Positions 26,021-62,855 of a DNA stretch of 64,000 nucleotides are shown in pieces; within the stretch, counting starts at the first letter, position 1, and the number at the start of each line of letters is the position of its first letter. The stretch lies in NCBI GenBank assembly GCA_964016885.1, contig OZ024756.1, positions 36,766,001 through 36,830,000 of the forward strand. The letters are read 5' to 3'. A model generated the notes under the pieces. The model worked only from the letters and a program-made list of their open reading frames with translations. It ran no database searches and was not told where the DNA came from. Both the position numbers and the translations under genes were made by a program. This DNA is from Eledone cirrhosa. Taxonomy: Eukaryota.

Positions 26021-27807
26021 AAGCAGAGAAGAAATGAGAGGGACCTAGTATCATAATAAACGCCTCTGGGGGTTGTGTGTGGCCTAGTAGGTAGGATGTC
26101 AATCTTCAGTGAGAAAGGTACTTTATTTCTTGTTGTCTCTGTCCACTCAGCTAAGAATAAGTACTATCAGTAGGTTAACTTTGCGATGGACTAGCATCCT
26201 ATCCAGGGGCTAGTCATGTACTCCTAGTAGCTTAACAATATTGAAATAGGGATAAGCTCCATCCAACCTGATGACTCTCTAGGCTTGACATGTCTAGCAT
26301 CAGAATGTGACAACCCATTTAACCTATGCAAACATGGAAAATAAACATAAAACGATGCTGATATGTGTCCTTATTTGGGCATGTACATAGCAGTTCGACA
26401 AAAAGAGATTGATAAAATTAAGTACCTGACTGGATAAAAGTACTTGTGTCAATATGATCAACTAAATCCCTTCAAGTGAAGGTGCGTGGCTGAGTGGTGA
26501 GAGAATTGGATTCGCAACCGTGAGGTTGTGAGTTTGATTCCCGGACCAGTTGATGCGTTATGTCCTTGAGCAAGACACTTTATTTCACGTCCTTCTGCCT
26601 GGATTTATGACTGATAGATAGTATTAACAATTGGAAAGACCAATGGAAACATTGTTTCTGCGGTCTGATTTGACGAAGCCTGGGATCTTGTTGATCGACT
26701 GTCGAATCCCTTCGAGTTGATGCCCCAGTATGGCCATAGTCTAATGACTGAAACTAGTAAAAGAGAAAGAGTAGAGTCTTGGAAAATGACTTGTGAAAAG
26801 TGGTCCTGTGTTCCTTGAGTGACAGAAACAGACATGATGGTCACGACTGGATTGTCTTTGCTCACAGTTCTACAAGATGAGGCCTGACAATGGTGTTAAA
26901 CAACTTGGCGATTATTGCACTTTTAATGCTAGGACGGGGGTGTAGGAAGTGTGTGTTCTAACTTGAATGATGTCATTCTTCATCCCTTGGGGGTAAAGCT
27001 GTATTACGTCACATCCTCTCTACTCATTGTCATTTGATATAATTGAGATTTTTTGCTGTTGGTGGGTGACTGGGACGATGGATAGATGATGTCACCTTCA
27101 CATTTCATATGTTCGGTACCGACCCAAGTCACTTTCAAATTACACCCACGGGGGGTATTGAACAACATAGTCCTAGATAGACTGTGTTTGAAGAAAAAAA
27201 TATAAAAACGAGATGGTCATAGCTGGATGACACTATGATGATGGGTCTACTAGTTCAATGCTGACCTAGCGCTTGTGTATGTGTGTGTTGAAACCTAGCG
27301 GGAAAAGTTCTGTGGTCGACGAAATCCATTGAAAGCGGTGGTGCCCCAGCATGACTGCAGTCTAATCATTGAAAGCAGTTACAGAGTATGTTTCAAATAA
27401 AACATTTTTATTCCCTCTTTTAAATTAATTTTGAAAGTGGGTCAATTCAGTGATGGCCTTGTATCAGAATGTAGCCTCCTTCCTTACACACATGACCACC
27501 ACCTCCGATATGTCCCATACTGATAACATTGTGATGGCATACAGTAAGAGAGGGGAGGACTGTGCCCTTGGCCTTTGCAGGAATTCTCAGACTTGCGGCG
27601 GTAGCAGTGGAGACGGTGGCGGCCACGTGATGACTGTGACATTGATGATGGTGTCGACGGTGGTTGCCACGTGATGATGTTGCCTTTGCTGGTGTTGGTG
27701 GGGGGTGGGGGGTGGGGGGGGGGGGGGGGGGGTGGGGGGGGGGGGCTGATGGTGATGGTGGTAGTGGCGACGGTGTTAAGTGATATTTACTGGCTGCTGT
27801 GTGTATG

Positions 27808-27839
<32 letters not shown>

Positions 27840-28024
27840 ATTCCTTTATTCCTTTATTCCTTTCCTTCACCAAAAAACCGTTACTCGGTCGCTCCATCTG
27901 CTAGAAATAATAGCCATATCTCCAGACCTGTCAACTCTCCCCGTCAGACGGGGAGATCTCCCACCCTCTTTGGGGTGGGTGAGAGATGTCTTCTCTTGTG
28001 AAAATGTGTATAGCTTTCATTCAA

Positions 28025-28213
28025 GGGCGGTGGATTGGCAGTATCGGTAGAGGGTCGGACGCCATGCTTTCCAGCATAGTTACGTCCCTTTACGATCTGA
28101 GTTCAAATCCCGCCGAGGTTGACTTTGCCTTTCATCCTTACGGGGTCGATGAAATAAAGTACCAGTAACGCACTGGGTAATTGCTGGCCTTGTGCCTAAA
28201 GTAGAAACAATTA
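28025..28213 (+). mobile_element. tRNA-derived SINE, family S2 (representative full copy of ~20)
   Basis: TGGCAGTATCGG A-box, GAGTTCAAATCC B-box, GCCTTTCATCCTTACGGGGTCGATGAAATAAAGTACCAG core and GTAGAAACAATTA tail. Other copies near 3540, 15470, 15740, 15920, 20465, 29550, 30614, 33908, 35960, 41590, 43362, 46398, 49410, 52320, 52540, 58635 and 60825-61380. Confidence 0.9.
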
Positions 28214-30558
28214 TGTAAAATCTCTCCATTTTGCCTCATCTCTCCACGTTTTGGGGCACTTTTTTTCATGGTACTCCCAGTTTGGGTTTTTAGAAGTTGG
28301 CAGGTCTGTATCTCCCTCATATCCATACCCTACGGTTTTTTTACTTTAAAGAAAGACTCCAAATACACATTACATAATGTATTCCTAGATATGCTATGAC
28401 TAAAAAAAATAGACGGTATTATCACAGAACGTGTTTAATTATTAGCGTGTGACCAATAAAAACACTACTGTTACTATAAAACCCTTTATTTTCACGTTGT
28501 TCTAGTCCACTTAGCTGACAAAAATGAGTTGTACATGCGATTCAAAGGACTAGCCTCGTTATACATTGTGTCACGTCGAATCTCCCTGAGAATTATGTTA
28601 AAGTTACACGTGACTGGAATGCTCAGCCACTTGTACATTCATTTCACGAGCAGGTTGTTCCGTTGATCAAATAATTGGAACGAACCACCGACGGTGGCCC
28701 AACAAACACATCATACTGGTTTGCTGGATGGAGGGCAGACCTTGGGTTATATAACAATCGGAAGTGTTGACACGTGGAACTGCTTGCCCTCCTCCACCAC
28801 TCCCTCTTCTTCTCCCCACCCCCATATCTCCACCTTACCGTCTTCTCTTTTTAACCCACTTTTACAGTCTGTCTGTCTACCTACCAGACCTCTCCCTAAT
28901 TTTAACAGAATGACTGTCAACAGTCAATTTCGGATTAGTTTTGTGTGGGGACTGTAGCATATAAAGTGGGCCTTAAACCTTTTGATATCAAACATCCTGA
29001 AACCACCCCCTAAAAGTGTTTTTTTTTAAATTTTTAGTGTTCAGATTTATCTAAAAACCTTCCATCGTAATTCTATGTAAGAACATTCGTTAAGTTATGC
29101 CCCCAACATCAACTTGATGATGAGAAAGTTAGTTATATTACTAATTCCCTCGAAATTCTTGATTATTTTCAAAATAATTCAAAAACCCCAGACAGCGTCT
29201 TTAGAAACGTGGCAATGGAAGGGCTTAATGTGTTTATAGTTTTATGATAGACCCTTCGTTAAGTTATGTTCTCAATATCAACTTGATGGGAAAGTTATAT
29301 TACTAAATCCCTCTAAATTCTTGATTATTTTCAAAATAATGTGACAGTCACAGGCAATGTCTTTTGTTGGCAATGTCGTAACGAAAGGATGAAAATGTGA
29401 CAAACTTTCTGGGTAGTATAGTACTTTAGTATAAAGCCTTTAAAATGCCCCCACTTCTCCCCGAAAATGTAGAGTCCCATAGCAAATGCTACCCTTACTA
29501 CTAGGTTAATCCAGCACTCAACATTTCCTGATCTTGTTTATAATACTAATTAATTGTTTCTACTTTAGGCACAAGGCCAGCCATTACCCAGTACATTACT
29601 GGTACTTTATTTTATCGACCCCGTAAGGATGAAAGGCAAAGTTAACCTCGGCGGGATTTGAACTCAGACTGTAAAGGGACGTAACTATGCTAGAAAGCAT
29701 TGACATTGATGTCACCTAATTAATCACAATTCACCTCACCCCGTTCTCTGTACGAAACTAAGTTTGGGATTATTTGAACAGAGAAATTTGCCCACTATCT
29801 GCATTTATAACAGTCTAGTTGGTGGTGCTGGTGCTGGTGGTGTAATTATAATAACATTGGTAGTGTCAGTGTAGCGGCGGTGGTGATGGTGTAATATTGA
29901 CGATGGTGTGGTGGTGGTGGTGGTGGTGTAATTGTACCAATGTATTAGAGTTGGTGGCGTTGCTGATGGTGGTGTAATTAAAACTCTCGGTGACGGTGAT
30001 GTCATAACAATGGTAGTGTCAGTGTGGTGGCGGTGGTGATGGTGTAATATTGACGATGGTGAGGTGGTGGTGATGTAATAGTGGTAATGGTGTGGTAGTG
30101 GTAGCGGCGATGTAATTGGGGTAATGTTATAGAAGTGGTGGTGGTGTGTAGGTTGTTTATATATAGCTGGTAGCGGTGATAAGGATGGTGTGTTGGCAGT
30201 AGTGTTGAGTGATAGTGGTGGCGGTGGTAGTGGTGATATGGCTGTAGTAGTGGCAGTAGTGTGGTGGTAGTTGTATGGTGTTATGTTAAGGTTGTGGTAG
30301 TAGGGGAGGTGGTATTATGGTAGTTGTAGGGTTATGGTGAAAGTGTGTCATGGTAGTAGTAGTACTCGTGGTGGTGGTGGTGGTGGTGGTAGTAGTAGTA
30401 GTAGTGGTGGTGGTGGTAGTGTTATGGTGGTGTTAGAGGTGACTCTGGTACCCTATCTATAGCAGAATCTACCCCCTTTGCTAGAAATATTCCAGGGATA
30501 ACTTGAACCGTTGAGGTATATCATCCTTGGTCATGTCAAATATTTATAAAACATTTTG

Positions 30559-30795
30559 TATTTTATCTGATGATAGCGTACCAACATTTTTGGTACCCTT
30601 GAAATATATATAATTGTTTCTACTTTCAACACAAGGCCAGCAATTACCCAGTGCATTACTGGTACTTTATTTTATCGACTCCGTAAGGATGAAAGTCAAC
30701 CTCGGCGGGATCTGAACTCAGAATGGCAAGGGCCGTAACTCTAGGCGTCAAAAGCATGGCGTCAGACCCTCTACCGATACTGCCATAATAGAATA
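30559..30795 (+). ncRNA. Family G hammerhead interrupted by an S2 SINE
   Basis: TATTTTAT-CTGATGA-TAGCGTACCA..TGGTACCCTT-GAAATATATATA, then the SINE (~30614-30785), then the element resumes at ATAATAGAATAAATATGG. Confidence 0.7.
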
Positions 30796-30949
30796 AATAT
30801 GGTTTTATAAATATAGTTTCCATTTATTTAATATCATTGAATATTAAAGAAAATATTCAGAAAACTGTCGAGTGCTTTGAATCAGTTGTAAACATCTATA
30901 TTTGTTGGATTTCCAACAAATTTAATATCTCTTATATATATATATATAC

Positions 30950-30981
<32 letters not shown>

Positions 30982-31028
30982 TATGAAATACTGTGTGCTT
31001 CTTGCTCATAATAATTTCTATACTTTTC

Positions 31029-31095
<67 letters not shown>

Positions 31096-31295
31096 TATAT
31101 ATATAAATGTTTGGTACTGTAACAAGAGCTGAAGCCAGAAAGATGCGGTTATTAAGTTGAAGAAGCCATCGTAATTCTAACTAATCATATACATGGCTGA
31201 CTAACTACATACATGCCCCCCCCCACTCCAAAAAACAAATCTGTTTTTTTTTTTCTTACCGTCGTCTGTCTCTTTTTTTTCTATCTTCGATACTA

Positions 31296-31330
31296 TCTTC
31301 CGACGAAGGAAAACGTCCGAAACGTTAAGG
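31296..31330 (+). ncRNA. Minimal hammerhead-like motif, family I (U4C variant)
   Basis: TCTT-CCGACGA-AGGA-AAACG-TCC-GAAACGTT-AAGG. Degenerate relative at 41968-42005 (minus); 3' flank also at 34560-34632. Confidence 0.55.
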
Positions 31331-31578
31331 CTCTTTTCCTACTATATCAAGCGTTAAACTAATATATATGATTATTGTACTGTATTTCTCGCCTTTGTTT
31401 CTTCCTTGTTGCTCTCTCTCATATATATATATACGTATATGTATGTGTGTGTGTATATATATGTATGTGTAAATATAATTATATGTATATGTACAAATAT
31501 GTATGTATGTGTGTGTGTGTGTGTATAAATATATAATACGATATTAACAAATGGAAACTATATTTATAAAACCATATT

Positions 31579-31643
31579 TATTTTATTATACATATTTCAA
31601 GGACACCACGTTAAATTATGGTGTGCTTTCATCAGACAAAATA
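31579..31643 (-). ncRNA. Type I hammerhead ribozyme, family G, intact
   Basis: Minus strand reads TATTTTGT-CTGATGA-AAGCACACCA-loop-TGGTGTCCTT-GAAAT-ATGT-ATA/ATAAAATA. Confidence 0.85.
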
Positions 31644-31741
31644 TAATATAGATCAGTTTTATAAATAAATATTGACATACCCTTAAAAAATGCAACCATT
31701 ACTGTTGGAAGCTCCCGAAAACTATCCGAGAGCTTCCAACA

Positions 31742-31782
<41 letters not shown>

Positions 31783-31783
31783 A

Positions 31784-31850
<67 letters not shown>

Positions 31851-32094
31851 TATATGACTAGTTTTTGAATACTCAACGGAATGTAATAGTATACCATTAT
31901 ATACACTCACATGCGTATAATGAATGAAAGGCAGTGTCAATGACCTTCGCGAAGTTCTTTAGACTCTGGTTAACTACAAAGGATAGGACGGAAGTTCTTT
32001 GGAGACTGGTGGGTAAGATGAATGTGGTGGTGGAGGTGTCATATTAAACTGAAAACCCTTGTCCGGAAGTCTGTCTGATCGTCTGCCCCGTCTC

Positions 32095-32137
<43 letters not shown>

Positions 32138-32177
32138 AATAATGATGGCTGCCCGTTGCAAATGGTGGTGCATATGA

Positions 32178-32480
32178 AAAAGTGAGTCCTTCATCAGTGA
32201 CCCTCCAACCGTCCCAGGCATTTCATCGCTTTAAGGGCCATATGCCTCAGGTTGGTGCGAACAACGGCTAAAAAAAGTCGTTGGGACACGTAAATAAAGG
32301 GGACGTTAGGGTAACAAAGAAAATGGTTAAACCATTTTGTTTGTTACCCTAACGTCCCCTTTATTTACGTGTCCCGACGACTCTTTTTAGCCGTTGTTCG
32401 CACCAACCTGAGGCATATGGCCCTTAAAGCGATGAAATGCCTGGGACGGTTGGAGGGTCACTGATGAAGGACTCACTTTT
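32178..32480. repeat. ~303 bp near-perfect palindrome, family D
   Basis: Arms of ~151 bp centred at 32329 with essentially no spacer, between (TA)n tracts. Confidence 0.92.
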
Positions 32481-32484
32481 ATAT

Positions 32485-32516
<32 letters not shown>

Positions 32517-32819
32517 GCGATTATAGCCACAAGAAGAAAGCACTCACTACTTATATATGTAATATATAAACAGACTGTGTATATATGTAAATATATAAAC
32601 AGACTGTGTATATATGTAAATATATAAACAGAACTAATCTCTGTTAAATGCACTGAATGAAGGAGCGGTTTTAGAGGTGGTGGTGTTTTTAAATACGAGC
32701 CACAAGATCATGTGTTTTAGCCAGTATTCCATGTTACATAACATAACATTGGCATCAATGTCAGTCGATCGTGACAATAAGGGATTCTTCGATACACACA
32801 CACATTTATATATATATAT

Positions 32820-33038
32820 ATAGGAACGAGTAGGACCCCGACGGCTGAGCTCAAGCCGTTTCGACGGCTAGTTCTGGACTAAAAATTTTAGTCCATTTTA
32901 GTCCAGAACTAGCCGTCGAAACGGCTTGAGCTCAGCCGTCGGGGTCCTACTCGTTCCTATTACCCACTCTACTACCCTAAGTATTGAGTACTTTGGTGCG
33001 TTATGGTCCACCTGGTTCCTTACCACATTTCCTTTGTT
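32820..33038 (+). mobile_element. Palindromic element, family C copy 2, with hammerhead 3' half
   Basis: Arms 32820-32884 and 32897-32960. GAA-ACGGCT-TGAGCTC-AGCCGT-C at 32918-32940. Confidence 0.8.
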
Positions 33039-33156
33039 ATATATATATATATATATATAATGTAGGAGGTGAGTTTTATTGTAGCACAATAAAGCAATGC
33101 AAATATCGGATAAGTAGCACTCTACAGTTTGTAGGACTGGATATCATCCCATGATG

Positions 33157-33213
<57 letters not shown>

Positions 33214-33243
33214 AGATCAAAAGATGGTTAAAAGAGTTCCAAG

Positions 33244-33314
33244 TATTTTATTATGCGCATTTCAAAAACAAATATCATCATGGGATGATATCTGCGTTCT
33301 CATCAGATAAAATA
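33244..33314 (-). ncRNA. Type I hammerhead ribozyme with long stem II, family F
   Basis: Minus strand reads TATTTTAT-CTGATGA-GAACGCAGATATCATC-CCAT-GATGATATTTGTTTTT-GAAAT-GCGC-ATA/ATAAAATA. Confidence 0.85.
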
Positions 33315-33388
33315 GGGAGACATGATATGAAGCTTAAAAAACACTTGTGAATAGTGAAGTTTTAAATCAACATATGAAAAATAAATTA

Positions 33389-33438
<50 letters not shown>

Positions 33439-34045
33439 AATGTAATCTGAGTTTTTCGAATATTAATAATAACATTCGATTCGTTTGCAATTATGCAAAC
33501 AAGCCTCATTTTACAGCCATGTCAGTAGAATGAACCCTTCATTCTTGCTCTTGTGTTGGCATACACACATACAGACATCTTTTTGTAACTCTATCTTCGT
33601 TGCTTGTGTATAGGTATGACAAATGTATTGAGGTCTGACTTGGCTTGAAATTCTGCTATAACTAATCAAGACCATTACTAATATATATATATATATACCA
33701 TTTCCTCTTCCAATTAGCATAATTAACCATATAAAAAAATCAATTAGACCAGGTAATAAGAATAAAGGCTCCTATGAAGAAATTTCCGACAAATAACCGA
33801 AAGCGGCCTCTTCGTGGTGACCCCAATAGAGTATTTATCCGTGACCGGTTGCAACATATATATCTATGACTTTATGTATATGTAAATCTTTGTATATATA
33901 TATATAAATAATTGTTTCTACTTTTGGCACAAGACCACCAAGTTACCCAGTGTATTACTGGTACTTTATTTTTTCGACCCTGTAAGGATGAAAGGCAAAG
34001 TTATATAATGCTGATTGCTCTTGTCTTTCGCCTATGCCCACAACC

Positions 34046-34078
<33 letters not shown>

Positions 34079-34230
34079 CATACACACACACATTTCCTAA
34101 CGAAACATTTTCGCATATGGTCACTTGCTGGTTTGCGTATGCCGTCTGTCTGTGCCTGAAGAAAGAGTTATATAACTAGGTCAATTGGAAAACAAATACA
34201 CTACCTATCTATCTGTGTGTATGTGTGTGA

Positions 34231-34284
<54 letters not shown>

Positions 34285-34353
34285 AGGAAGCTCCAACCGT
34301 TAAGGTTGTCTTTTTTTCTGGGTATGTCAATATTTATTTATAAAACAAATCTA

Positions 34354-34419
34354 TATTTTATCTGATGAAAACGCACCATAATTTGCCTTGGTTGCCCTTG
34401 AAATATATATAATAAAATA
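34354..34419 (+). ncRNA. Type I hammerhead ribozyme, family G
   Basis: TATTTTAT-CTGATGA-AAACGCACCA..TGGTTGCCCTT-GAAAT-ATAT-ATA/ATAAAATA; stem II weakened. Confidence 0.75.
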
Positions 34420-34457
34420 AATATGGTTTTATAAATATAGTTTCCATTTATTAATAT

Positions 34458-34523
<66 letters not shown>

Positions 34524-34706
34524 TGTGTGTGTAAAAGGTAAACAGAAATAACAAAATGTCAAAACAAACGGCACAGTACATATGAAAGAAATATATTAGT
34601 TTAACGCGTGAAATAGCAGGAAGAGAGTCTTATATATATCCAGTGTTTGTGAGACACTGCCAAGTGTGTGTGTGTACATATGTATGTATATATGTGTTTG
34701 TGTGTG

Positions 34707-34738
<32 letters not shown>

Positions 34739-35339
34739 CCGAATGACTGACTCTGTGATGCTGATGACTGTATTAGATACATGTGGTGGAGAAAGTAGGA
34801 GGGGGGGGGGTTATATATTTACTCTATAGCAGTTTGTGTTGCTGTTGGTTGACATTTCCCCCCCTCCCTCCCCGATTAGTCACACACTACATACAGTACA
34901 CAACACATACGTACGTATACATCACACGTGATACATACACACTCTACACAACACTTATATCACATGCACACACGCATACATGTCGACAAAAGTATATGGA
35001 TTATTGTTAACATATACACGCACACGCATACACATATAAACATATACAAACAAGTATATTCATTCACATATATACACAAAAGATAAGCATACGTTCCCAC
35101 ACTTACATTGGCATACAAACACGCCCCCCCCCCCCATCTCTCTCACATAAAAAAGACAGACATAAGCACGTATGACTATTATCAGATATATACACTCAGG
35201 CATACATAAATATGCAACAGCACGTGTTGAAATTGACACACATACTGAAATATACACAAATGCATTGATATTGAAACATGCATGCACGTGCATGTGGATG
35301 TTAGAAATTGACACATAAACATACACAAACACTTATGGA

Positions 35340-35700
35340 AATTGACACATACATATACTGAAATATACACATACATATACTGAAATATACACATACATAT
35401 ACTGAAATATACTCAAATACGTTGATATTGACACATACATATACTGAAATATACACATACATATACTGAAATATACACATACATATACTGAAATATACAC
35501 AAATACGGTGATATTGACACATACATATACTGAAATATACACATACATATACTGAAATATACACATACATATACTGAAATATACTCAAATACGTTGATAT
35601 TGACACATACATATACTGAAATATACACATACATATACTGAAATATACACATACATATACTGAAATATACACAAATACGGTGATATTGACACATACAAAT
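35340..35700. repeat. 22 bp minisatellite with higher-order structure
   Basis: Unit ACTGAAATATACACATACATAT interspersed with AAATACG(G/T)TGATATTGACAC. Confidence 0.9.
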
Positions 35701-38034
35701 ACGTGGATGTCGACACATACATAAACATACACAATAACACGTGGATGTTAATATTCGCACACAGATAAGCAATCATAACCGTATGGATATTAACACCATT
35801 CATACACACTGACTCACACTCACGCACAGATATTGAGACACACACGCACAAACATAGATATTTACACACACACACACCAATACGTATAGATACAAAAATA
35901 TACGCAAATACATCGCTACATGGGATATTGAGATCCTCACAAAGACAAGCACAAGAATATTGGTTTCTGATTTAGGCACAAGACCAACAATTTTATGGGA
36001 GGGAAAGTCGATTAAGTGGACTCCAGTACGTTACTGGTACTTTATTTTATCAACCACGTAAGAGTGAAAAGTAAAGTTAACCTCGGCGGGATTTGAACTC
36101 AAAACGTAAAGGGACGTAACTCTAAGCTGCAAAGCAAGGTGTTCCGACGCTCTACCGATACTGCCAATCCACTGCTCTAAGACTTGCTAAATATTCAAAC
36201 ATACACGCCATCTATACTCTCTTTGTTTTTTCATCTATCTGTAAAGTACACTAAGAGATGGTGGTAGTGGTGGTGGTAGTAGTAGTGGTGGTGGTGGTGG
36301 TAGCGGTGGTGGTAGCGGTGGTGGTAGCGGTGGTGGTGGTGGTGGTAGCGGTGGTGGTAGCGGTGGTGGTAGCGGTGGTGGTAGTAGTGGTGGTAGTAGT
36401 AAATATGTTAATTAAGTAATTCCCTCCCACCACTTCTCTGCTCATCTTTTTTCTGTTTATAGTTCTGAAATGTCTTCCTCTCTCTCCCTCTCACAACCAC
36501 CTCTTTATCTCTTGTCTTCTCTCCCCCTCCATTCTGAAATATCTTCCTCTCTCTCCCTCTCACAACCACCTCTTCATCTCTTGTCTTCTCTCCTCCCTCT
36601 CCCCCTTCACACATTTTCCGCTTTCTTTCTTAGTCTACCTCTCACCCCCTCTCACTGTCTTCTTCTCTATTGCAGTCTACTGCCTCTCTCCTTACCCCCT
36701 CTCTTGCAGTCTACTGCCTCTCTCCTTACCCCCTCTCTTGCAGTCTACTGCCTCTCTCCCTTACCCCCTCTCTCTCTCTATGTTGTTCTCTATAAAATGT
36801 TATTATTCTCTCTTCTCTCTCTCTCTCTCTGTTGCTCTCCCTCCCTCTCTCGTTCTCCCTATCTGTCACTGTTCTCTCTATATTCTTTGTTGATCTCTCT
36901 ATAATCTCTGTTATTGTTCCCTATATATTCTCTCTCCCTCTCAACACACACCCTCTCATTCATTCACTCTATCTGTTGTCTTCTCTCTCCCCCTCTCATT
37001 CATTCACTCTCTATCTGTTGTCCTCTCTCTCTCCCAACCTCTCATTCATTCACTCTCTATCTGTTGTCCTCTCTCTCTCTCTTCACCTCTCATTCATTCA
37101 CTCTCTCTCTCTCTTCACCTCTCATTCATTCACTCTCTATCTGTTGTCCTCTCTCTCTCCCAACCTCTCATTCATTCACTCTCTATCTGTTGTCCCCCCT
37201 CTCTCTCTCTTCACCTCTCATTCATTCACTCTCTATCTATTTTCGTCTCTATAAATAGTCTCCACCATTTTCTTTTTCTTTCAGTTTCTAATCTCTAAAA
37301 TTTGGCAATCTTTTGTTTAAATTTCTTATCTCGTTGCACTCAACCTCCTTCCCTTTGTCTATTTTTGTGTGTATAATGTTTGTGTGTGTATGTGTATGAA
37401 CACATATTATGTATGTAAACATACATTTGTGTGTGTATATATATATATATAAACGTGTGTGTATATATATATTATATATAAACATACATGTATGTATGTA
37501 TATATGAGTGTGTGCGTGCGTGTATATATTAAAACAGATATATATATATGTTCCAAGAGATAACGGTGTCAACTACCCCCCCCCCCCCCCGCTCCTCTTA
37601 CCTGGTTCTCTTACCATTTCTTCCTCCCCCTGCTCCTCCCCCCCACCTCATTATATAACGATTTTTTAAAGTCACTGACTCACTTGCCTTATGTGTAGTA
37701 TGTGTGTGTTACACATTAAACTGAGCTTTTTGGTCATTACTCCTTTGTTTACAAACTGTAACCTGTGTATGTATGTGTGTATGCTTACCCCACCCTTGAA
37801 TTCTACTATATACACAAGGTGTAGCAACTGTCTGGGTCCCCCATAGTGGGTTTTTCTTCTTCTTCCGTATATGTTATTCATTTTTGCAAGTGTTCTGCTA
37901 CATTACAAACAAGAAAAGAAAAGAAAAATGTCTAACGTTCTCGTATTCAAATGCATACACAACTAATAAAATCAAAGACTGTTATTTTAAGCATTTACTA
38001 CGATATAGCTCTTTACCATTTTGCTTATGGAGCA

Positions 38035-38078
<44 letters not shown>

Positions 38079-38954
38079 ATACAAACATACATACGCACAT
38101 TATACAGGGTGTTAAAAAAATGTATACACACTTTGATTACCTGTACAGGCAATATTTATTAGAATGCTGTTGAAGTGTGTATACATTTTTTGGAGGAACA
38201 CCCTGTATTTATGTAACTATGATTGTCAATTAATTGCTTTAATTTGGACGTAAAACCAACCTGATCTCACCAAAGCCAATCACGATCTCAAGCAAACATA
38301 AACCATACATCTACATTCGATCTCATTCATCAGACCTAGACCGCTCAAGGAAGAGTTGAATCACATGTTCATCCATCCACGCACACATCTATAATTATAT
38401 AATATACACATGAGCTCAGGGTCGAATTCCGTCCTTTTTGTGACCCTTAAACACCTAAAAGATTATGCCCCCCGCCCCCTCATTCTCATATATAAAATCT
38501 AAAAGAACCTTAATTTCAATAAAATGGTGTCCCTTTTTCTCCGAGGCCCTTAACTTCAATAAAACGGCATCCCTTTTTACTGGAGGCCCTTAATTTCAAT
38601 AAAATGGCGTCCCTTTTTCCCTTGATGCACTTAATTTGAATAAAACAAGGTTCCTTTTCTCCCACTTGATGCTCTAAACATGTGTTTAGCGTGTTGAAAG
38701 CTTCGTCCATGAACTAACAAACGTCCCAGACTCAGTTTTGCTGACTCTACCAAAACACTACTATGAAATGCCAACACATCGATAACACACAGTGTTGCTT
38801 CTGTCATTGTTAGTATTTATTGATTTTTATTTCTTCTTCTTCTCCTTCCTTGTTGTTATTGTTTCTATTTATATGACTTGCAAGCAACAGTAGTAGTAGT
38901 AGTAGTAATAGTTGTGGTTGTTGTTTATATACTATACTGTAGTGACATAACTAC

Positions 38955-38990
<36 letters not shown>

Positions 38991-54084: not shown

Positions 54085-54210
54085 ATGTATGTTGATGCCC
54101 TAAGGACAGACACTGGTCTGTTGGAGATGCAGGATATGGCAGCGATAATGAGGGACAGAGACCGCTGGAGAGAACTCGTCCATGGATCTCGGGAATTTTA
54201 CCCGCCTTAG
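54085..54210 (+). mobile_element. RTE-type LINE 3' terminal fragment
   Basis: [35 protein letters not shown]; same family as 58125-58510. Confidence 0.7.
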
Positions 54211-54774
54211 ATAGATAGATATGTATGTATATGTATATATCTATATACATATATGTATATATATATATATATATAAATATATATTTACCTTTTGGCTAAT
54301 CTTTGTTGTTATTCCTGTTTCACTGAAATTAGTTTTTTTGGGAGTGTTTTTAATGATGGTGGCACATGGGAATGAGGGTGAGACAGTGCCCATAACTGTT
54401 TAAATGTCCGGATGATATTGAAAAGTGAAATGAAAAAAAAAAATGTAATGAAATAGGTGATATTGGTATATTAAGTAAAGGGGGGGGGGCGGTTTGGCTG
54501 AATGCCACAGGTAAAATTCTTAATTAAACTTTCTCCTCCTGGTTAAAGAAAAAAACAAATAGCCATAACAGTTACTAATCACTCTTAAATGAGATTTTTT
54601 TTCTCATTTTAAAAAATCAACTGATCAGGCAGGTTTTGTTAGTCTATACTGTGCTGGTGAGGTCTAATAGACAGAAATATATCTATGGGTGTCTCTTGCT
54701 GGTAAACAAAGATCAACTCATTCTTCTCGTTAAGAATATAAATTAATCTGTGAGAAATTTTTATTTGTAATTCT

Positions 54775-56285
54775 CTGAATTGGGAGATCACAGCTCTGAT
54801 ACTATGGGCATGTGGTAAGAATGTCTCAGGATAGAATCACTGGACAGATTTGTAGCTCGGAGATCAAAGTATCATTCCAGATAGCGCCACTACTGTTCTG
54901 AATTGAGAGATCACAGTTCTGATACTATGGGCATGTGGTTAGAATATCACAGGAAAGAATCACTGGACAGATTTGTAGCTCGGAGATCAAAGTATCATTC
55001 CAGATAGCGCCACTACTGTTCTGAATTGAGAGATCACAGTTCTGATACTATGGGCATGTGGTTAGAATATCACAGGAAAGAATCACTGGACAGATTTGTA
55101 GCTCGGAGATCAAAGTATCATTCCAGATAGCGCCACTACTGTTCTGAATTGAGAGATCACAGTTCTGATACTATGGGCATGTGGTTAGAATATCACAGGA
55201 AAGAATCACTGGACAGATTTGTAGCTCGGAGATCAAAGTGTCACTCCAGATAGAGCTGCTACTGTTCTGAATTGAGAGATCACAGTTCTGATACTATGGG
55301 CATGTGGTTAGAATATCACAGGAAAGAATCACTGGACAGATTTGTAGCTCGGAGATCAAAGTATCATTCCAGATAGCGCCACTACTGTTCTGAATTGAGA
55401 GATCACAGTTCTGATACTATGGGCATGTGGTTAGAATATCACAGGAAAGAATCACTGGACAGATTTGTAGCTCGGAGATCAAAGTGTCACTCCAGATAGA
55501 GCTGCTACTGTTCTGAATTGAGAGATCACAGTTCTGATACTATGGGCATGTGGTTAGAATATCACAGGAAAGAATCACTGGACAGATTTGTAGCTCGGAG
55601 ATCAAAGTATCATTCCAGATAGCGCCACTACTGTTCTGAATTGAGAGATCACAGTTCTGATACTATGGGCATGTGGTTAGAATATCACAGGAAAGAATCA
55701 CTGGACAGATTTGTAGCTCGGAGATCAAAGTGTCACTCCAGATAGAGCTGCTACTGTTCTGAATTGAGAGATCACAGTTCTGATACTATGGGCATGTGGT
55801 TAGAATATCACAGGAAAGAATCACTGGACAGATTTGTAGCTCGGAGATCAAAGTATCATTCCAGATAGCGCCACTACTGTTCTGAATTGAGAGATCACAG
55901 TTCTGATACTATGGGCATGTGGTTAGAATATCACAGGAAAGAATCACTGGACAGATTTGTAGCTCGGAGATCAAAGTGTCACTCCAGATAGAGTTGCTAC
56001 TGTTCTGAATTGAGAGATCACAGTTCTGATACTATGGGCATGTGGTTAGAATATCACAGGAAAGAATCACTGGACAGATTTGTAGCTCGGAGATCAAAGT
56101 GTCATTCCAGATAGCGCCACTACTGTTCTGAATTGAGAGATCACAACTCTGATACTATGGACATGTGGTTAGAATGTCTCAAGATAGAATCACTGGACAG
56201 ATTCTACAGGCAAAACCAACTAGCAGGAGACCCAGGGGTAGGCCTTGGGCAAGATCATCGTTGGATAACATCTATGAGCTTGGCT
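54775..56285 (+). repeat. 123 bp satellite (~11-12 copies) derived from an RTE LINE coding segment
   Basis: AATTGAGAGA recurs at 54901 and 55024. The last unit reads through into ERSQL*YYGHVVRMSQDRITGQILQAKPTSRRPRGRP. Confidence 0.9.
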
Positions 56286-57098
56286 CACACATACATGGAA
56301 ACTTCCCCCATCACTCACACACACATCACACATAAAGACATCTCCCTCCACACACAGACACCTCAGCTCATACACACACACACACACACACACACATCTC
56401 CACACGTACACACATACACATATAGACACTTTCATACATACACACCAGTCAGTATTGCATCATTTAAGTTGGTTGGGTTTTTTTTGTGCGTGTGATTTGG
56501 TCTCTGTGTCTTAATCTGTATTGATGTTTTTTTTAATGTATTGAGTCACACTAATGTATGTGAGTGGAGGGTAGTTTTGGTGTTTGTGAGTGGAGGGTGG
56601 TTTTGGTGTTTGTGAGTGGAGGGTGGTTTTGGTGTTTGTGAGTGGAGGGTGGTTTTGGTGTTTGTGATGTGAGTGGAGGGTGGTTTTGGTGTTTGTGATG
56701 TGAGTGGAGGGTGGTTTTGGTGTTTGAGAATGTAATGGTAGTGGTGATGGTTTTATTAAAAGTAATGGTGGTGATTGTGATGATGGTGGTGGTGGAGAGG
56801 ATTATAGTAAAAGTAATGATAGTGGTGGTGGTGATGGTGGTTTAATGATGCTGGTGGTGTTGATGATAATGCTGATGATAATGGTTGTATTGATCATAAT
56901 AGTGATGATGCTGATGATACTATAGTGTTAGTTTCTACTGGAGAATTTTCAGTTTTCCGGTTTATCTCCAATTCTCTCCTCTTCCTCCTCCCATATGTTC
57001 AGATTCAGGGAAATATGACCCTCCTCTCTTTCTTTCTCTCTCACACACACATGTAAATACATGTATGTATGTATGTATATATATATATATATATATGT

Positions 57099-57435
57099 AG
57101 GCACATGGCTTAGTGGTTAGAGCATTGGCCTTGCAATCGAAAGGTTGTGAGTTCAATTCTCAGACCGGGTGATGTTGTTTCCTTGAGCAAGACACTTTAT
57201 TTCACATTGCTCCAGTTTACTCAGCTGTAGAAATGAGATGATAGGGACTGGGGTCCCTATCATTCCACTGCAGCGTGGTCGTGGAGGTGCCACGGCAAAA
57301 AAGCACCCACCACTCACTGTAAATGAGGTTGGTGTTAGGAAGGGCATCCAGCTGTAGAAATCAAGCCAGCATCAGTTTCCGTCCCACCCTTGCAAGCAGG
57401 GAAAAGCGGACGTAAAATGAAATGATGATGATGAT
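57099..57435 (+). mobile_element. SINE S1, full length
   Basis: A/B boxes, internal hairpin ATGATAGGGAC..GTCCCTATCAT, central domain, RTE-like tail and (TGA)n. Confidence 0.88.
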
Positions 57436-57764
57436 ATATATATACATGTGTATGTTTATAAATAAATGTGTGTGTGTGCATATATTATAGGCAATCTCTT
57501 GATGTTTATAAATAGAAGTTTGTTGTTTCTTAGATTCTGCACCAATCTAAGGGCTGTTATTTAATAGATGACCTATATATAAAGGACTACGTGCGTGTGT
57601 GTGTGTGCATGTGCGTTCGTGCGTGTGCACACATACATATACAGAAGAGACATACACACAAGGTCAATTTCTCACTATCTACTATTTCTCACTCTCTCAT
57701 ATATTAAATTAACAATGAAAATAAAACAACTAAGTCAAGTTACTTTACCTATTCATATCATTGT

Positions 57765-57832
<68 letters not shown>

Positions 57833-58124
57833 CATACACACACACACAAGGTCAATTTCTCACTATCTACAAAATTTACTCACAAATTATTGGCCTGACC
57901 AGGAATATAGTTAAAACACAGTCCTGCCTGCATTGTTATCACTTTAAATTCAGTTAAAGCAACAACAAAAAGCACCAGCATTTGAATCTCAGAACAATGA
58001 AAAGAAAATATCATTGAAAAGATGAACTCTTCCTTTATAGCTTCAAAATGCCAGGGTTTGATTGATCATCCCTGTCATTCTTGTGCTAAACCACCTGAAC
58101 CTCTCCCTGGTTCTTTGATATCAT

Positions 58125-58510
58125 CTAGGGCGGGTAAGATTCTTGAGATCCATGGACGAGTTTTCTCCAGTGGTCTGTCTTTCATCATCGCTACCATGTC
58201 CTGTGTCCAGTGTATGTCCTTAGGGCTTTAACATATGTCAACCTCGGTCTCCCTCTTCCAGTGTGTCCATGTAGAGGGCTCCCACAGGAGCACTGAGTGT
58301 GCAATGTCAACTCTGAATGTTGGTGAGCATGTCCAGCTAACCTCAGTCTCCTCTGTGTCACTTTTGAGCTGACTTTTGGGAGGCTCCAGTACAGCTCTGA
58401 GTTCTTCATCCTCAGTGTATTCTGATTAATGTTCAGAGCCATCCTCAGCATCCTCGTGTAGCACCCATCCACCATCTGAGTGAGTCTCTTGGTCAATGTT
58501 CAAGTCTCAG
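58125..58510 (-). mobile_element. RTE-type LINE C-terminal fragment
   Basis: DGCYTRMLRMALNI..ELYWSLPKVSSKVTQRRLRLAGH..GRGRPRLTYVKALR. Confidence 0.85.
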
Positions 58511-59609
58511 AAAGTGTTTATATTTGTCTAAAAACCTTCCATCATAATTTTATGTAAGACTCATTATGTTCTAAACACCAAACAAAAAAAGTTAGTTTTT
58601 TTTTCTTTTTTTTTCGTTAATATAAATAAATCCTGGGGGGTTGGCAGTATCAGTAGAGTGTCAGCAACCATGCTTTGAGGCATAGAGTTACGGCCCTTTA
58701 CTTTCTGAGTTCAAATCCCGCCGAGGTTAACTTTGCCTTTCATTCTTACGGGGGTCGATAAAATAAAGTACCAGTAATGCACTGGGATAATTGCTGACCT
58801 AGTGCCAAAAGTAGAAATAATATTACTAAATCCTTCTAAGTTCTTGATTATTTTCAAAATAATTTGGAAACCAGAGGCAAAAAATCTGGTAGTGAAGAGG
58901 TTAAGCAACAATTGTTTTGGAAAGAAAGAATGAAATATTTTTTTTGTGTAGGAAAATAACTGATATTGTGTGTTACGTAGAACTGAAGTGTCTCTAGAGT
59001 AAAGTGAGGCAGACATGTTGGATTATAAATGGAATTTTTTACTAGGTGAAGCAAGAAATAGTTAGTCCGGGGATTTAACTGTTGGTGTAAACCCATTGGG
59101 AAATAGCTATTAAGGGATTCAATATAGGATGTGAACCCATTCAGGAGGCAGGACCAGGGGGAACAGGAGGAATTCAGATTATAAATGTTGCCAAAATAAT
59201 AATTATTATAAATCTTATCGGATTTTTGTTTGAAATATAAAGTTAAAATGTTTGATTTTTCTGTATTTAGATATGGTTTACTATTACCACACCTTGTCTC
59301 ACTGTTTATGTATGTGTATATATATATTATATATGTATATGCATGTGTATGTATATATCTGTGTGTGTATGTATGTATGTGTCTATGTAGGAATGGGTGT
59401 GTGTGTCTGTGACATGTTTTCCATACTTGCATGGTTTAAATGGGTTATCACATTCTGAGCCCATACAGGTCAGATGACTGCATTTCACTCATGTTCCACT
59501 CTGAAATATCCTCTTCCACTAATGCCAACCACTTCCTATTGTGTACTGGGTGCGTTTTATCACGAAACCACCATTATCTATGAATTTTAATTAATTTTTA
59601 AAATAACTA

Positions 59610-59826
59610 CCATATTTCCCCGCCGCTGAAGACACTTTGTCCTCGAGGACGCACCCTAATTTTGACAAAAATAAAAAGAAAAATAACAAACAACCTTCGG
59701 CCTCTAGGACACATGGTAGATTTTTGAGACTTCATCATGATCATCATCGTCGTTTAACGTCTATCTTCCACACTAGCATGGGTTTTTTTAGGAAAAAAGT
59801 AGTGTCTTCGATGCCAGGAAATACGG
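59610..59826. mobile_element. Tc2/pogo-like MITE remnant
   Basis: TA|CCATATTTCCC..GAAGACAC at one end and GTGTCTTC..GGAAATACGG at the other, as imperfect TIRs. Confidence 0.5.
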
Positions 59827-60029
59827 TCTCTTTCTCATTATTAATTTGGTGTTTGAAGCTTAAATTAATAAAATGTTCTTACATAAAATTATAATGGGAA
59901 GTATAGATTTAAACCTGAACACTTTAAAACAAACATTCTTTCTTTGGGTAATGACTGAAAGAACATGATCATGAATACAAGCAGCCAAAATCAGATTCGT
60001 CTGAAGTGTCTTTGGAGTAATATTATTCG

Positions 60030-60250
60030 ATAAGGTGTGTAGCTTGGAGAGCAGAGAGTCACTCCAGGTAAAGCTGGTACTTCTCTGCATTGAGAGATCA
60101 GACCTCCGATACTACGGACATGTGGTTAGAAAATCTAAGGAAAATAAAAAATTGTTGTATAAATTTTACGAGGAAAGTCAACTGGCAGGAGACCCAGAGG
60201 TAGACCATGAGTAAGATGGTTGAATAACATCCATAAGTTTGATTGGTCAC
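60030..60250 (+). mobile_element. RTE LINE C-terminal fragment homologous to the 123 bp satellite unit
   Basis: GAGAGATCAGACCTCCGATACTACGGACATGTGGTTAGA (ERSDLRYYGHVVR), followed by GGCAGGAGACCCAGAGGTAGACC. Confidence 0.75.
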
Positions 60251-60532
60251 ACTTGGGCATCCAGCCAGATCATTTGGAGACTGTTTCTGATAGGCCTCTC
60301 TCGAAGACATATCTCAGGACACTGCCCCCGTAACCCTCTCAGAATTACATGGGTGAAGAAGATTTTTCTTTATAGAACCAGAAGTGATATCGGAAGAATT
60401 AACTTCTGAAATAAAATATTATTGGTCATGTAATAATAAAATTTCAATAAATTTGACGGAGTTTTAGCCATGTTGGTGTTTAAAGATTTATACATTTGTT
60501 TCAACTTGTATTTTTTTTCTATTTTTTTCCAG

Positions 60533-60650
60533 ATAAAAAGACAATTCTTAAAAGTATATCTGGAAAATTCTGTTCTGGTCAGCTGACAGCTATCATGGGA
60601 CCGTCTGGGGCAGGGAAGTCCTCCCTAATGAATATCCTTGCTGGATACAG
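60533..60650 (+). CDS. ABCG1: ABCG1/4-like exon 2 (Walker A)
   Basis: Polypyrimidine tract plus CAG acceptor. Translates (D)[38 protein letters not shown](R) with Walker A GPSGAGKS. Donor GTAAGT at 60651, phase 2. Not in the supplied ORF track. Confidence 0.96.
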
Positions 60651-61419
60651 GTAAGTCGTGTAACTTGTTAACAAAAGTAGCACTTCTATTCCTTTTCTTG
60701 TTTCAGTTTTCTTTACCAGCTCTTCAGTAATTGGTAAAATTATTACTGGGTCGTCAAATATGAAATTTGTAGAAATTTTTTTTTTTTTTCTACAAATTTC
60801 ATACTTGACCCAATATTATTATTTGGCATAGAGTTACGGTCCTTTACGTTCTGAGTTCAAATCCCGTGGAGGTTAGCTTTGTCTTTCATCCTTACATGGT
60901 TGATAAAATAAAGTACCAGTAATGCACTGGGGTAATTTCTGGCCTTGTGCCAAAAGTAGAAACATTATATTGGCAGTATCAGTAGAGGGTTAGACGTTAT
61001 GCTTTGCAGCATAGAGTTGCGCCCCTTTACGGTCTGAGTTCAAATCCTGCCGAGATTAACTTTGCCTTTCATCCTTACAGAGGTCAATAAAATAAAGTAC
61101 CAGTAATGTACTGGGTAATTGCTGGCCTTGTGCCAAAAGTAGAAACATACATTATTATATTGTAAGGGCGGTGGATTGGCAGTATCGGTAAAGCGTCTGA
61201 CATTTTGCCACATATGGTTATGGACCTTTACATTCTGAGTTCAAACCCCACTGAGGTTATCTTTTGTCTTTTATCCTTACAGAGTCGATAAAATAAAATA
61301 CCAGTAATGTACTGGGGGTCAATTTAATCAACTTTCCCCTTCCCTTCATATTGCTGTCCTGTTGTACCAAAAGTAGAAAGAGTTATATTATATTTTACTA
61401 TGAATTGTTATTTTGACAG

Positions 61420-61609
61420 GACATCTAATGTTAGCGGAGATATCCTGATTAAAGGTAAAGAACGTAACCTCAGAACATTCCGGAAGATGTCATGTTACAT
61501 CATGCAAGATGACCACCTCCTGCCCCACCTCAGCGTGGAAGAGTCCATGATGTGTTCAGCCAACCTCAAACTTAATGAAAATACGAGTAAGGCTGAAAAA
61601 CAGAGTTTG
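61420..61609 (+). CDS. ABCG1: ABCG1/4-like exon 3 (Q-loop)
   Basis: ttttgacAG acceptor. Translates (R)[63 protein letters not shown], matching ABCG1 [22 protein letters not shown]. Donor GTGAGT at 61610, phase 0. Confidence 0.96.
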
Positions 61610-61615
61610 GTGAGT

Positions 61616-62855
61616 ATCATCATCATCATCATCATCGTCGTTTAGTATCCATTTTTCCCCACGCTAGCATTAGTTAGATAGTTTGTTCCATTTGAAGCAA
61701 GTCAGGTCAGGTGACCATGTCTTGCGCATACAGAACTGATCCTAGCTTGGTTTCTAGGGTTGGATGCCCTTCCTAACGCCAACCACTTTACAGTGTGTAC
61801 TGGGTACTTTTTGTTGTGACACCTACACAACCACTTTACAGTGTGTACTGGGTACTTTTTGTTGTGACACCTACACAACCACTTTACAGTGTGTACTGGG
61901 TATTTTTTTGTTGTGACACCTACATGACCACTTTACAGTGTGTACTGGGTGCTTTTTGTTGTGACACCTACATGACCACTTTACAGTGTGCACTGGGTGC
62001 TTTTTGTTGTGACACCTACACAACCACTTTACAGTGTGTACTGGGTATTTTTTTGTTGTGACACCTACACAACCACTTTACAGTGTGTACTGGGTATTTT
62101 TTTGTTGTGACACCTACATGACCACTTTACAGTGTGTACTGGGTGCTTTTTGTTGTGACACCTACACAACCACTTTACAGTGTGTACTGGGTATTTTTTT
62201 GTTGTGACACCTACATGACCACTTTACAGTGTGTACTGGGTACTTTTTGTTGTGACACCTACACAACCACTTTACAGTATGTACTGGGTATTTTTTTGTT
62301 GTGACACCTACATGACCACTTTACAGTGTGTACTGGGTGCTTTTTGTTGTGACACCTACACAACCACTTTACAGTGTGTACTGGGTATTTTTTTGTTGTG
62401 ACACCTACATGACCACTTTACAGTGTGTACTGGGTACTTTTTGTTGTGACACCTACACAACCACTTTACAGTGTGTACTGGGTATTTTTTTGTTGTGACA
62501 CCTACATGACCACTTTACAGTGTGTACTGGGTGCTTTTTGTTGTGACACCTACATGACCACTTTACAGTGTGTACTGGGTGCTTTTTGTTGTGACACCTA
62601 CATGACCACTTTACAGTGTGTACTGGGTGCTTTTTGTTGTGACACCTACATGACCACTTTACAGTGTGTACTGGGTGCTTTTTGTTGTGACACCTACATG
62701 ACCACTTTACAGTGTGTACTGGGTGCTTTTTGTTGTGACACCTACATGACCACTTTACAGTGTGTACTGGGTGTTTTTTGTTGACACCTACATGACCACT
62801 TTACAGTGTGTACTGGGTGCTTTTTGTTGTGACCTACACAACAATTTTATAGTGT
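61616..62855 (-). repeat. S1-related SINE whose internal 48 bp segment is amplified ~22 times
   Basis: (CAT)n tail, then GGATGCCCTTCCTAACGCCAA, then tandem CCACTTTACAGTGTGTACTGGGTGCTTTTTGTTGTGACACCTACATGA. Confidence 0.9.

Follow-up and report, generated by a model that had tools for sequence, protein, structure and literature searches.

The question raised by this locus is whether the hammerhead motif at positions 33314-33244 is an active ribozyme in its own right, as an earlier note proposed in naming it the best single candidate for one, or a remnant of a mobile element. The motif lies on the minus strand of a 64,000-nucleotide stretch of the Eledone cirrhosa genome (contig OZ024756.1, positions 36,766,001 to 36,830,000; hereafter the window). 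We hold with considerable confidence that it belongs to a truncated pseudo-LTR of a Penelope-like element (PLE), likely of the Hydra clade, that its cleavage is predicted only in a double hammerhead, and that this copy is likely inactive.

The motif, located by sequence scan and folding, is a type I hammerhead covering 33244..33314. Stem I (TATTTTAT/ATAAAATA, 33314-33307 with 33251-33244) consists of A and U, is paired at 8/8 positions and equals stem I of the complete hammerhead at 34354-34419. It is followed on the minus strand by the core CTGATGA (33306-33300), by stem II with its two 16-nt arms (33299-33284 and 33279-33264) and loop CCAT (33283-33280), by GAA (33263-33261), by stem III with the palindrome ATGCGCAT (33260-33253) and by A17 (33252), and the predicted cut site falls between 33252 and 33251. 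The perfect stem I, canonical core, long stem II and palindromic stem III described earlier were thus all found again: stem II is paired at 15/16 positions when G-U pairs are counted (4 of the 15), and its sole unpaired position is a C.U at position 4. The type I features C3 U4 G5 A6 N7 G8 A9, G12 A13 A14, the A15.1-U16.1 pair, H17, the three helices and the open end at helix I are present. The G10.1-C11.1 closing pair of stem II is highly, not absolutely, conserved in hammerheads; here the 10.1-11.1 pair is G-U instead of the usual G-C. Stem III has no loop and is predicted not to close within one molecule.

At the locus, Rfam gave no hammerhead match, either at the gathering score or at E values up to 10, and a genome search with RF00163 found 18 other places among 74 scored. 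Rfam misses these motifs because they share a C.Y mismatch and have no G10.1-C11.1 pair. Matches to Rfam miRNA models stayed below the cut-off and were rejected as hairpin and repeat artefacts. Nearby, at 32821-32960, is a near-perfect 140-nt palindrome with a diverged second copy at 20134-20311; each arm of the former holds GAAACGGC...GCCGTC, like a hammerhead 3' half, and has sub-threshold miRNA-type Rfam matches. An inverted repeat pair at 32197 (minus) and 32461 (plus) carries CTGATGA with no GAAA after it and ends in (TA)n; it may be a half-core element, comparable to the Naiad type of Craig et al. (PMC8557442).

Folding, modelled as an equilibrium at 37 C, separates the behavior of one molecule from that of two. 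A single molecule is predicted to form stems I and II (P 0.70-0.96; distal stem II 0.99, proximal stem II 0.65), and the A15.1-U16.1 pair has a P of 0.001. When two copies are folded together, the minimum free energy structure is a double hammerhead with a binding energy of -10.8 to -10.9 kcal/mol, in which the stem I strands are swapped and an 8-bp stem III forms between the strands (P 0.96). This is the highest stem III dimer probability of the four complete hammerheads in the window whose stem I is identical or almost so; the other three (+10178-10242, +34354-34419 and -31643-31579) reach 0.00-0.18. Across the wider family, no stem III dimer is predicted (P 0.00-0.18) where the palindrome consists of A and U only, which is the case in 11/16 representatives. 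With 20 or more nucleotides of additional upstream flank, stem I is lost (P 0.00-0.22), both here and in identical siblings, and the predicted dimer is weak in flank context (-6.9 kcal/mol, P 0.46). On these models, the hammerhead would cleave solely as a double hammerhead, and the predicted dimer folding agrees with the dimer model and the low activity described for metazoan PLE hammerheads (PMC4209133). A helix upstream, in which the 3' strand of stem I is sequestered, resembled a designed off-switch and was rejected as one: 4/60 flank shuffles performed equally (median P 0.02 across the shuffles), for a sibling 12/60 were as good, and the helix is absent from two related subfamilies.

Two further hammerheads of the window both have the stem III ATATATAT: the complete one at 34354-34419 (plus), in which pair 3 of stem II is an A.C mismatch, and one truncated at its 3' end at 30559-30610 (plus). 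They lie 3.8 kb apart and sense in the host intron, hence would be carried by the pre-mRNA, where they might in principle make up one half of a double hammerhead; folding predicts no stem III dimer for them.

The copy number places this motif in a large family. Counted by exact word patterns, the 24-mer made of the core and the 5' strand of stem II occurs 817 times in the 3.0-Gb genome, and its reversed control does not occur. A 91-nt construct of the locus folds at -18.9 kcal/mol (z -2.46), with 5/200 shuffles as good, and from both results the motif is not a chance occurrence. Over all 71 nt, 17/30 of the first 24-mer loci are identical to the window copy, as are 23/78 blast hits spanning the motif in loci L001-L070 and the window, a set that favors identity through the 30 loci chosen by the 24-mer and may contain a few duplicates. 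The copies lie in (TA)n with variable 5' truncation, and in 15/30 an inverted piece of the same family is found upstream. The status of best single candidate therefore stands only in part: the motif has the strongest predicted dimer of the window's four and is not a unique candidate, because it represents the most frequent form of a transposon family present in many copies. Having a long stem II is a trait of this family and no sign of extra activity.

A 15-mer word of stem I and core is far more abundant, with 45,251 exact genome matches (control 7). Judged by eye, 23/30 of its first loci run into a complete motif, and 7/30 lie within the present family in the broad sense. Among 67 distinct motifs, stem II pair 1 is G-U in 38 and A-U in 29 and is never G-C, pairs 2-3 alternate between A-U and G-C, position 4 is C.U in 40, C.C in 26 and U.C in 1, and H17 is always A, the core and the stem III ends being imposed by the scan. 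In 16 chosen representatives, position 4 is unpaired in 16/16 and 9/19 pairs are changed on both sides, a value reached by 0/500 shuffles; the inner palindrome pairs also covary, in sequences that are related and where CpG decay can mimic one palindrome change. Covariation and co-folding together support a hammerhead of type I whose stem III is palindromic and dimer-forming. For comparison, 9,000 minimal motifs have been counted in Xenopus (PMC4209133) and 126,247 in axolotl (PMC7229834). The literature search gave no description of this hammerhead family, which may be catalogued in Repbase or Dfam, and the main text of PMC13282606 mentions neither hammerhead nor ribozyme.

A wider interpretation, which we regard as doubtful, takes these motifs as an undescribed subtype with tens of thousands of copies, characterized by an A/U stem I, a C.Y mismatch acting as a docking site, a loopless palindrome, the triplet AUA and dimers formed in trans. 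In this subtype stem I would be invariant, and stem II would be built from three purine-pyrimidine pairs followed by an obligatory C.Y mismatch. It seems unlikely that a tertiary or protein-docking C.Y site would replace the G-C closing pair, and we would give little weight to the idea that RNAs of different loci, host introns included, could pair in trans in a concentration-dependent manner. A separate hammerhead-like family occurs in inverted pairs at 9993-10040 (plus), 20825-20875 (plus) and 20823 (minus). It has CTGATGA, a weak stem II, GAA, a looped stem III ACAG/CTGT and a GUA triplet; it is nearer to the published Hydra motifs, and its monomer is able to form stem III.

The family's parent element can be recognized in its long copies, where a GIY-YIG-type frame lies about 1 kb upstream of the hammerhead in the same sense. 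A protein search of the genome returned 150/150 scored hits at 82-100% identity, with open frames of up to 760 aa; the 760-aa frame contains YRDDG and, at its C-terminal end, a GIY-YIG-type region. Locus L062 shows a partial tandem, with a pseudo-LTR (hammerhead and tail), an ORF and again a hammerhead with tail, in a unit of 3,668 bp. This copy has a stop near its start, and the ATG lies about 200 nt past the cut site of the upstream pseudo-LTR. Read by eye, the protein has DKT, CNCPVRTKC (CxCX5C) and CxxC-E-N-CxH and no CCHH, and at the N-terminal RWK column it has RWI, where homologues have RWK (4/6) or RWR (2/6). It aligns with homologues at 37-40%. Pfam gave no hit on two element proteins and a GIY-YIG hit on 1/3 homologues scanned; the homologues carry PF01541 or PF00078. 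Insertion in (TA)n, a sense hammerhead at the 3' end, pseudo-LTR tandems, inverted 5' copies and a tail are all Hydra-type traits, and the unit is larger than the typical, not defining, Hydra size of <3 kb. From the motifs of its protein, the element is likely a Hydra-clade PLE. Beside this family, the same (TA)n tracts (L003 1639-2115, L007 and L019) contain insertions of another PLE family, whose GIY-YIG domain differs, and frame fragments of a LINE-type reverse transcriptase (RT) lie at 14369-15149 (minus) of the window.

With the Hydra-clade PLEs, which include Hydra-1_Obim of Octopus bimaculoides, the element shares a single ORF with RT and C-terminal GIY-YIG, the DKT, CxCX5C and CxxC/CxH motifs, (TA)n targets, a sense hammerhead near the 3' end, tandem pseudo-LTRs, inverted 5' copies and an optional tail (PMC8557442). 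It differs in its length of 3.7 kb with a 3' UTR of about 1 kb, whereas Hydra elements are mostly <3 kb, in RWI instead of RWK, and in a tail of about 90 nt instead of 30-40 (PMC8557442). The hammerheads differ as well: stem II has 16 positions against 3-7 bp in the 26 Hydra rows of File S2, stem III is a loopless 8-nt palindrome where the Hydra rows are looped, and the triplet is AUA, in contrast to GUN in all 26 rows (PMC8557442). Some Hydra rows of the same file close with G-U or U.U, and a G-U closing pair is also listed there for Penelope-13_HM and Penelope-17_HM (PMC8557442). By its unlike hammerhead, the family is distinct from Hydra-1_Obim (PMC8557442). The minimal hammerheads of metazoan PLEs are likewise of type I, with a palindromic 15.2-16.2, a long helix II, truncated copies dispersed in their thousands and a predicted action as dimers; in contrast to them, the present motif lacks both a G10.1-C11.1 pair and an additional nucleotide between 9 and 10.1, and it has a longer stem I (8 bp) and a conserved C.Y at stem II position 4 (PMC4209133).

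The non-LTR retrozymes of newt and axolotl share a weak monomer and dimerization through helix III; they are short tandem repeats that give circular RNAs, whereas the present motif belongs to a dispersed PLE end (PMC7229834). That the motif is itself a unit of such a retrozyme, a short tandem repeat expressed as circular RNA, would fit its type I architecture, unstable helix III and low GC (PMC7229834), and an origin of retrozymes from PLE pseudo-LTRs has been proposed (10.64898/2026.07.22.740005). This is extremely improbable here: no hammerhead tandem array of 150-450 bp was found in the window or in the mapped loci, the copies derive from an ORF-bearing element by 5' truncation of variable extent, and the map of L031-L070 largely refutes the retrozyme reading.

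At the locus, the truncated pseudo-LTR lies among further element pieces and (TA)n tracts at 33038-33435. A 187-nt piece on the minus strand (33206..33392) is the 5'-truncated 3' end of the element (3' UTR / pseudo-LTR), with 93-100% identity to the 3' ends of ORF-bearing copies and 97% to positions 6245-6431 of L062, and it stops about 43 nt past the predicted cut, at the family's short end. The optional 3' tail of the same element (about +53 to +133 from the cut) lies separately at 33061..33141 (minus), is 100% identical to L062 6440-6518 and terminates at the family's long end. It is joined through a 2-nt GA microhomology to an inverted 21-nt fragment of stem II at 33140..33160 (plus). The inverted copy reported earlier across a (TA)n tract is therefore real, being exact over its length (22 nt with 33161); the tract itself, the (TA)n target between the two pieces, covers 33161..33208, and further (TA)n tracts adjoin the truncated 5' end (33391..33435) and the tail end (33038..33060). 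The junction of tail and 21-mer, at 33128-33149, occurs once in the genome. In Logan contigs from 4 runs the family is present, none bridges the inversion junction, and the commonest letters differ from this copy. The segment 33061-33160 is the usual product of a tail plus an inverted fragment, with an unusually short forward part, and it may have arisen with the 187-nt piece in one complex event or by two insertions into one (TA)n tract.

The 3' ends of other copies fall mostly at two distances past the predicted cut. Of 84 distinct copies with the cut-site anchor, which is blind to ends at the cut itself, 3 lie too near the locus end and 81 can be scored: 48/81 end at +34..50 past the cut and 29/81 at +127..138, in TA/CA runs, and 4 end elsewhere. 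In a set of 30 copies selected with the 5' 24-mer, the short end is found in 21 and the tail end in 7, one copy stops no more than 10 nt from the cut and one elsewhere, and 0/25 hits with a 5' end inside the 226-nt reference start within 2 nt of the cut site. The ends lie past the cut, and therefore the integrated cDNA includes an uncleaved junction. In the Poseidon element PAc of Anolis, which belongs to a different clade, two internal RT start sites, both downstream of the hammerhead, likewise bound the tail; uncleaved RNA is the main template, cleavage occurs only with protein, and the targets are AT-rich as here (PMC11167929). The PAc ORF starts inside stem II, whereas the ATG of the present element lies past the cut (PMC11167929). 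The tail opens, 3' of the short priming site, with a hairpin ACTC-CAG...CTG-NN-GAGT of variable loop (L062 6440-6480, several families), a candidate RT-binding or template-boundary element.

A mechanism that would account for this structure starts with nicking of (TA)n by the element endonuclease. AU-rich points within the uncleaved RNA, about +40 and +132 relative to the cut, would then serve the RT for priming. A premature stop would leave the copy of 187 nt, and switching of templates at the GA microhomology would join the tail to the inverted 21-mer. In element transcripts, two hammerheads, from the tandem pseudo-LTRs of one transcript or from two RNAs, may pair via AUGCGCAU and swap their stem I strands, and the double hammerhead would trim the transcripts, possibly helped by the element protein. 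Antisense read-through at this locus would be misfolded by the inverted 21-mer.

The integration of uncleaved junctions also speaks for the alternative that deserves most weight, unlikely as we consider it: the family motif would be catalytically dead or nearly so and be kept as a protein-binding RNA structure for the RT/endonuclease. Consistent with such a role, the closing pair is G-C in 0/67 distinct motifs, minimal PLE hammerheads are poor cleavers (PMC4209133), and catalysis is dispensable in vitro for PAc (PMC11167929). AUA is the slowest triplet for purified ELVd hammerheads, but active natural hammerheads with AUA exist (PMC1636495). Against a dead motif, the core, A15.1-U16.1, A17 and the covarying palindrome are kept despite diverged stem II and flanks, the core being partly imposed by the scan.

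The position within the host gene concerns the activity of this copy in particular. Most of the window lies within an intron of about 42 kb (18580..60532, plus, GT...AG, phase 1) of an ABCG1/white-like ABC transporter gene, with an upstream exon at 18258-18579 (plus; weak protein match, E 0.34), a Walker A exon at 60533-60650 (plus) and a further exon at 61420-61608 (plus; 61328-61642 in a match with E 2e-16). The motif was earlier called antisense, which is correct with respect to the host gene and not with respect to its own Penelope-like element, to which it is sense. Since it is antisense in the intron, the host pre-mRNA holds only its reverse complement. It would be very improbable for this copy to be an active, possibly domesticated, cis-acting ribozyme that cuts an antisense ABCG1-like transcript and has the inverted 21-mer for its regulatory switch. 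Its core and all helices match the commonest form of the family, the 91-nt construct alone is predicted to form stems I and II (P 0.96 and 0.99), and the 21-mer complements the stem II of the RNA that carries both. However, the youth of the family accounts for the identity to siblings, the junction is private and of a kind common among them (15/30 loci with inverted 5' pieces), no promoter or transcript is known, and stem III requires a partner. In the read-through fold with the inverted 21-mer, stem I has a P of 0.00 and stem II of 0.00-0.19, so that the 21-mer is predicted to break both stems in read-through RNA. The locus makes a poor candidate for in vivo activity, being 5'-truncated, antisense in a host intron and accompanied by an inverted fragment predicted to be disruptive. 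We return to the truncated pseudo-LTR: the hammerhead copy at 33314-33244, truncated and backwards in the host intron, is likely silent and unlikely to be an active ribozyme in vivo.

The function of PLE hammerheads has been called unclear (Craig 2021, PMC8557442), and the family found here, young and present in many copies, lends itself to testing their role. It offers near-intact ORF copies, two sharp priming sites that flank a conserved hairpin, and a palindrome rich in GC that is predicted to dimerize well, and the short 91-nt construct is well suited to testing the family in vitro. The C.Y mismatch and the absent G10.1-C11.1 pair mark a structural variant that is worth one biochemical study. 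The locus itself is ordinary transposon debris; interest is carried by the abundance of the family and its shared odd architecture, and not by the copy at 33314-33244.
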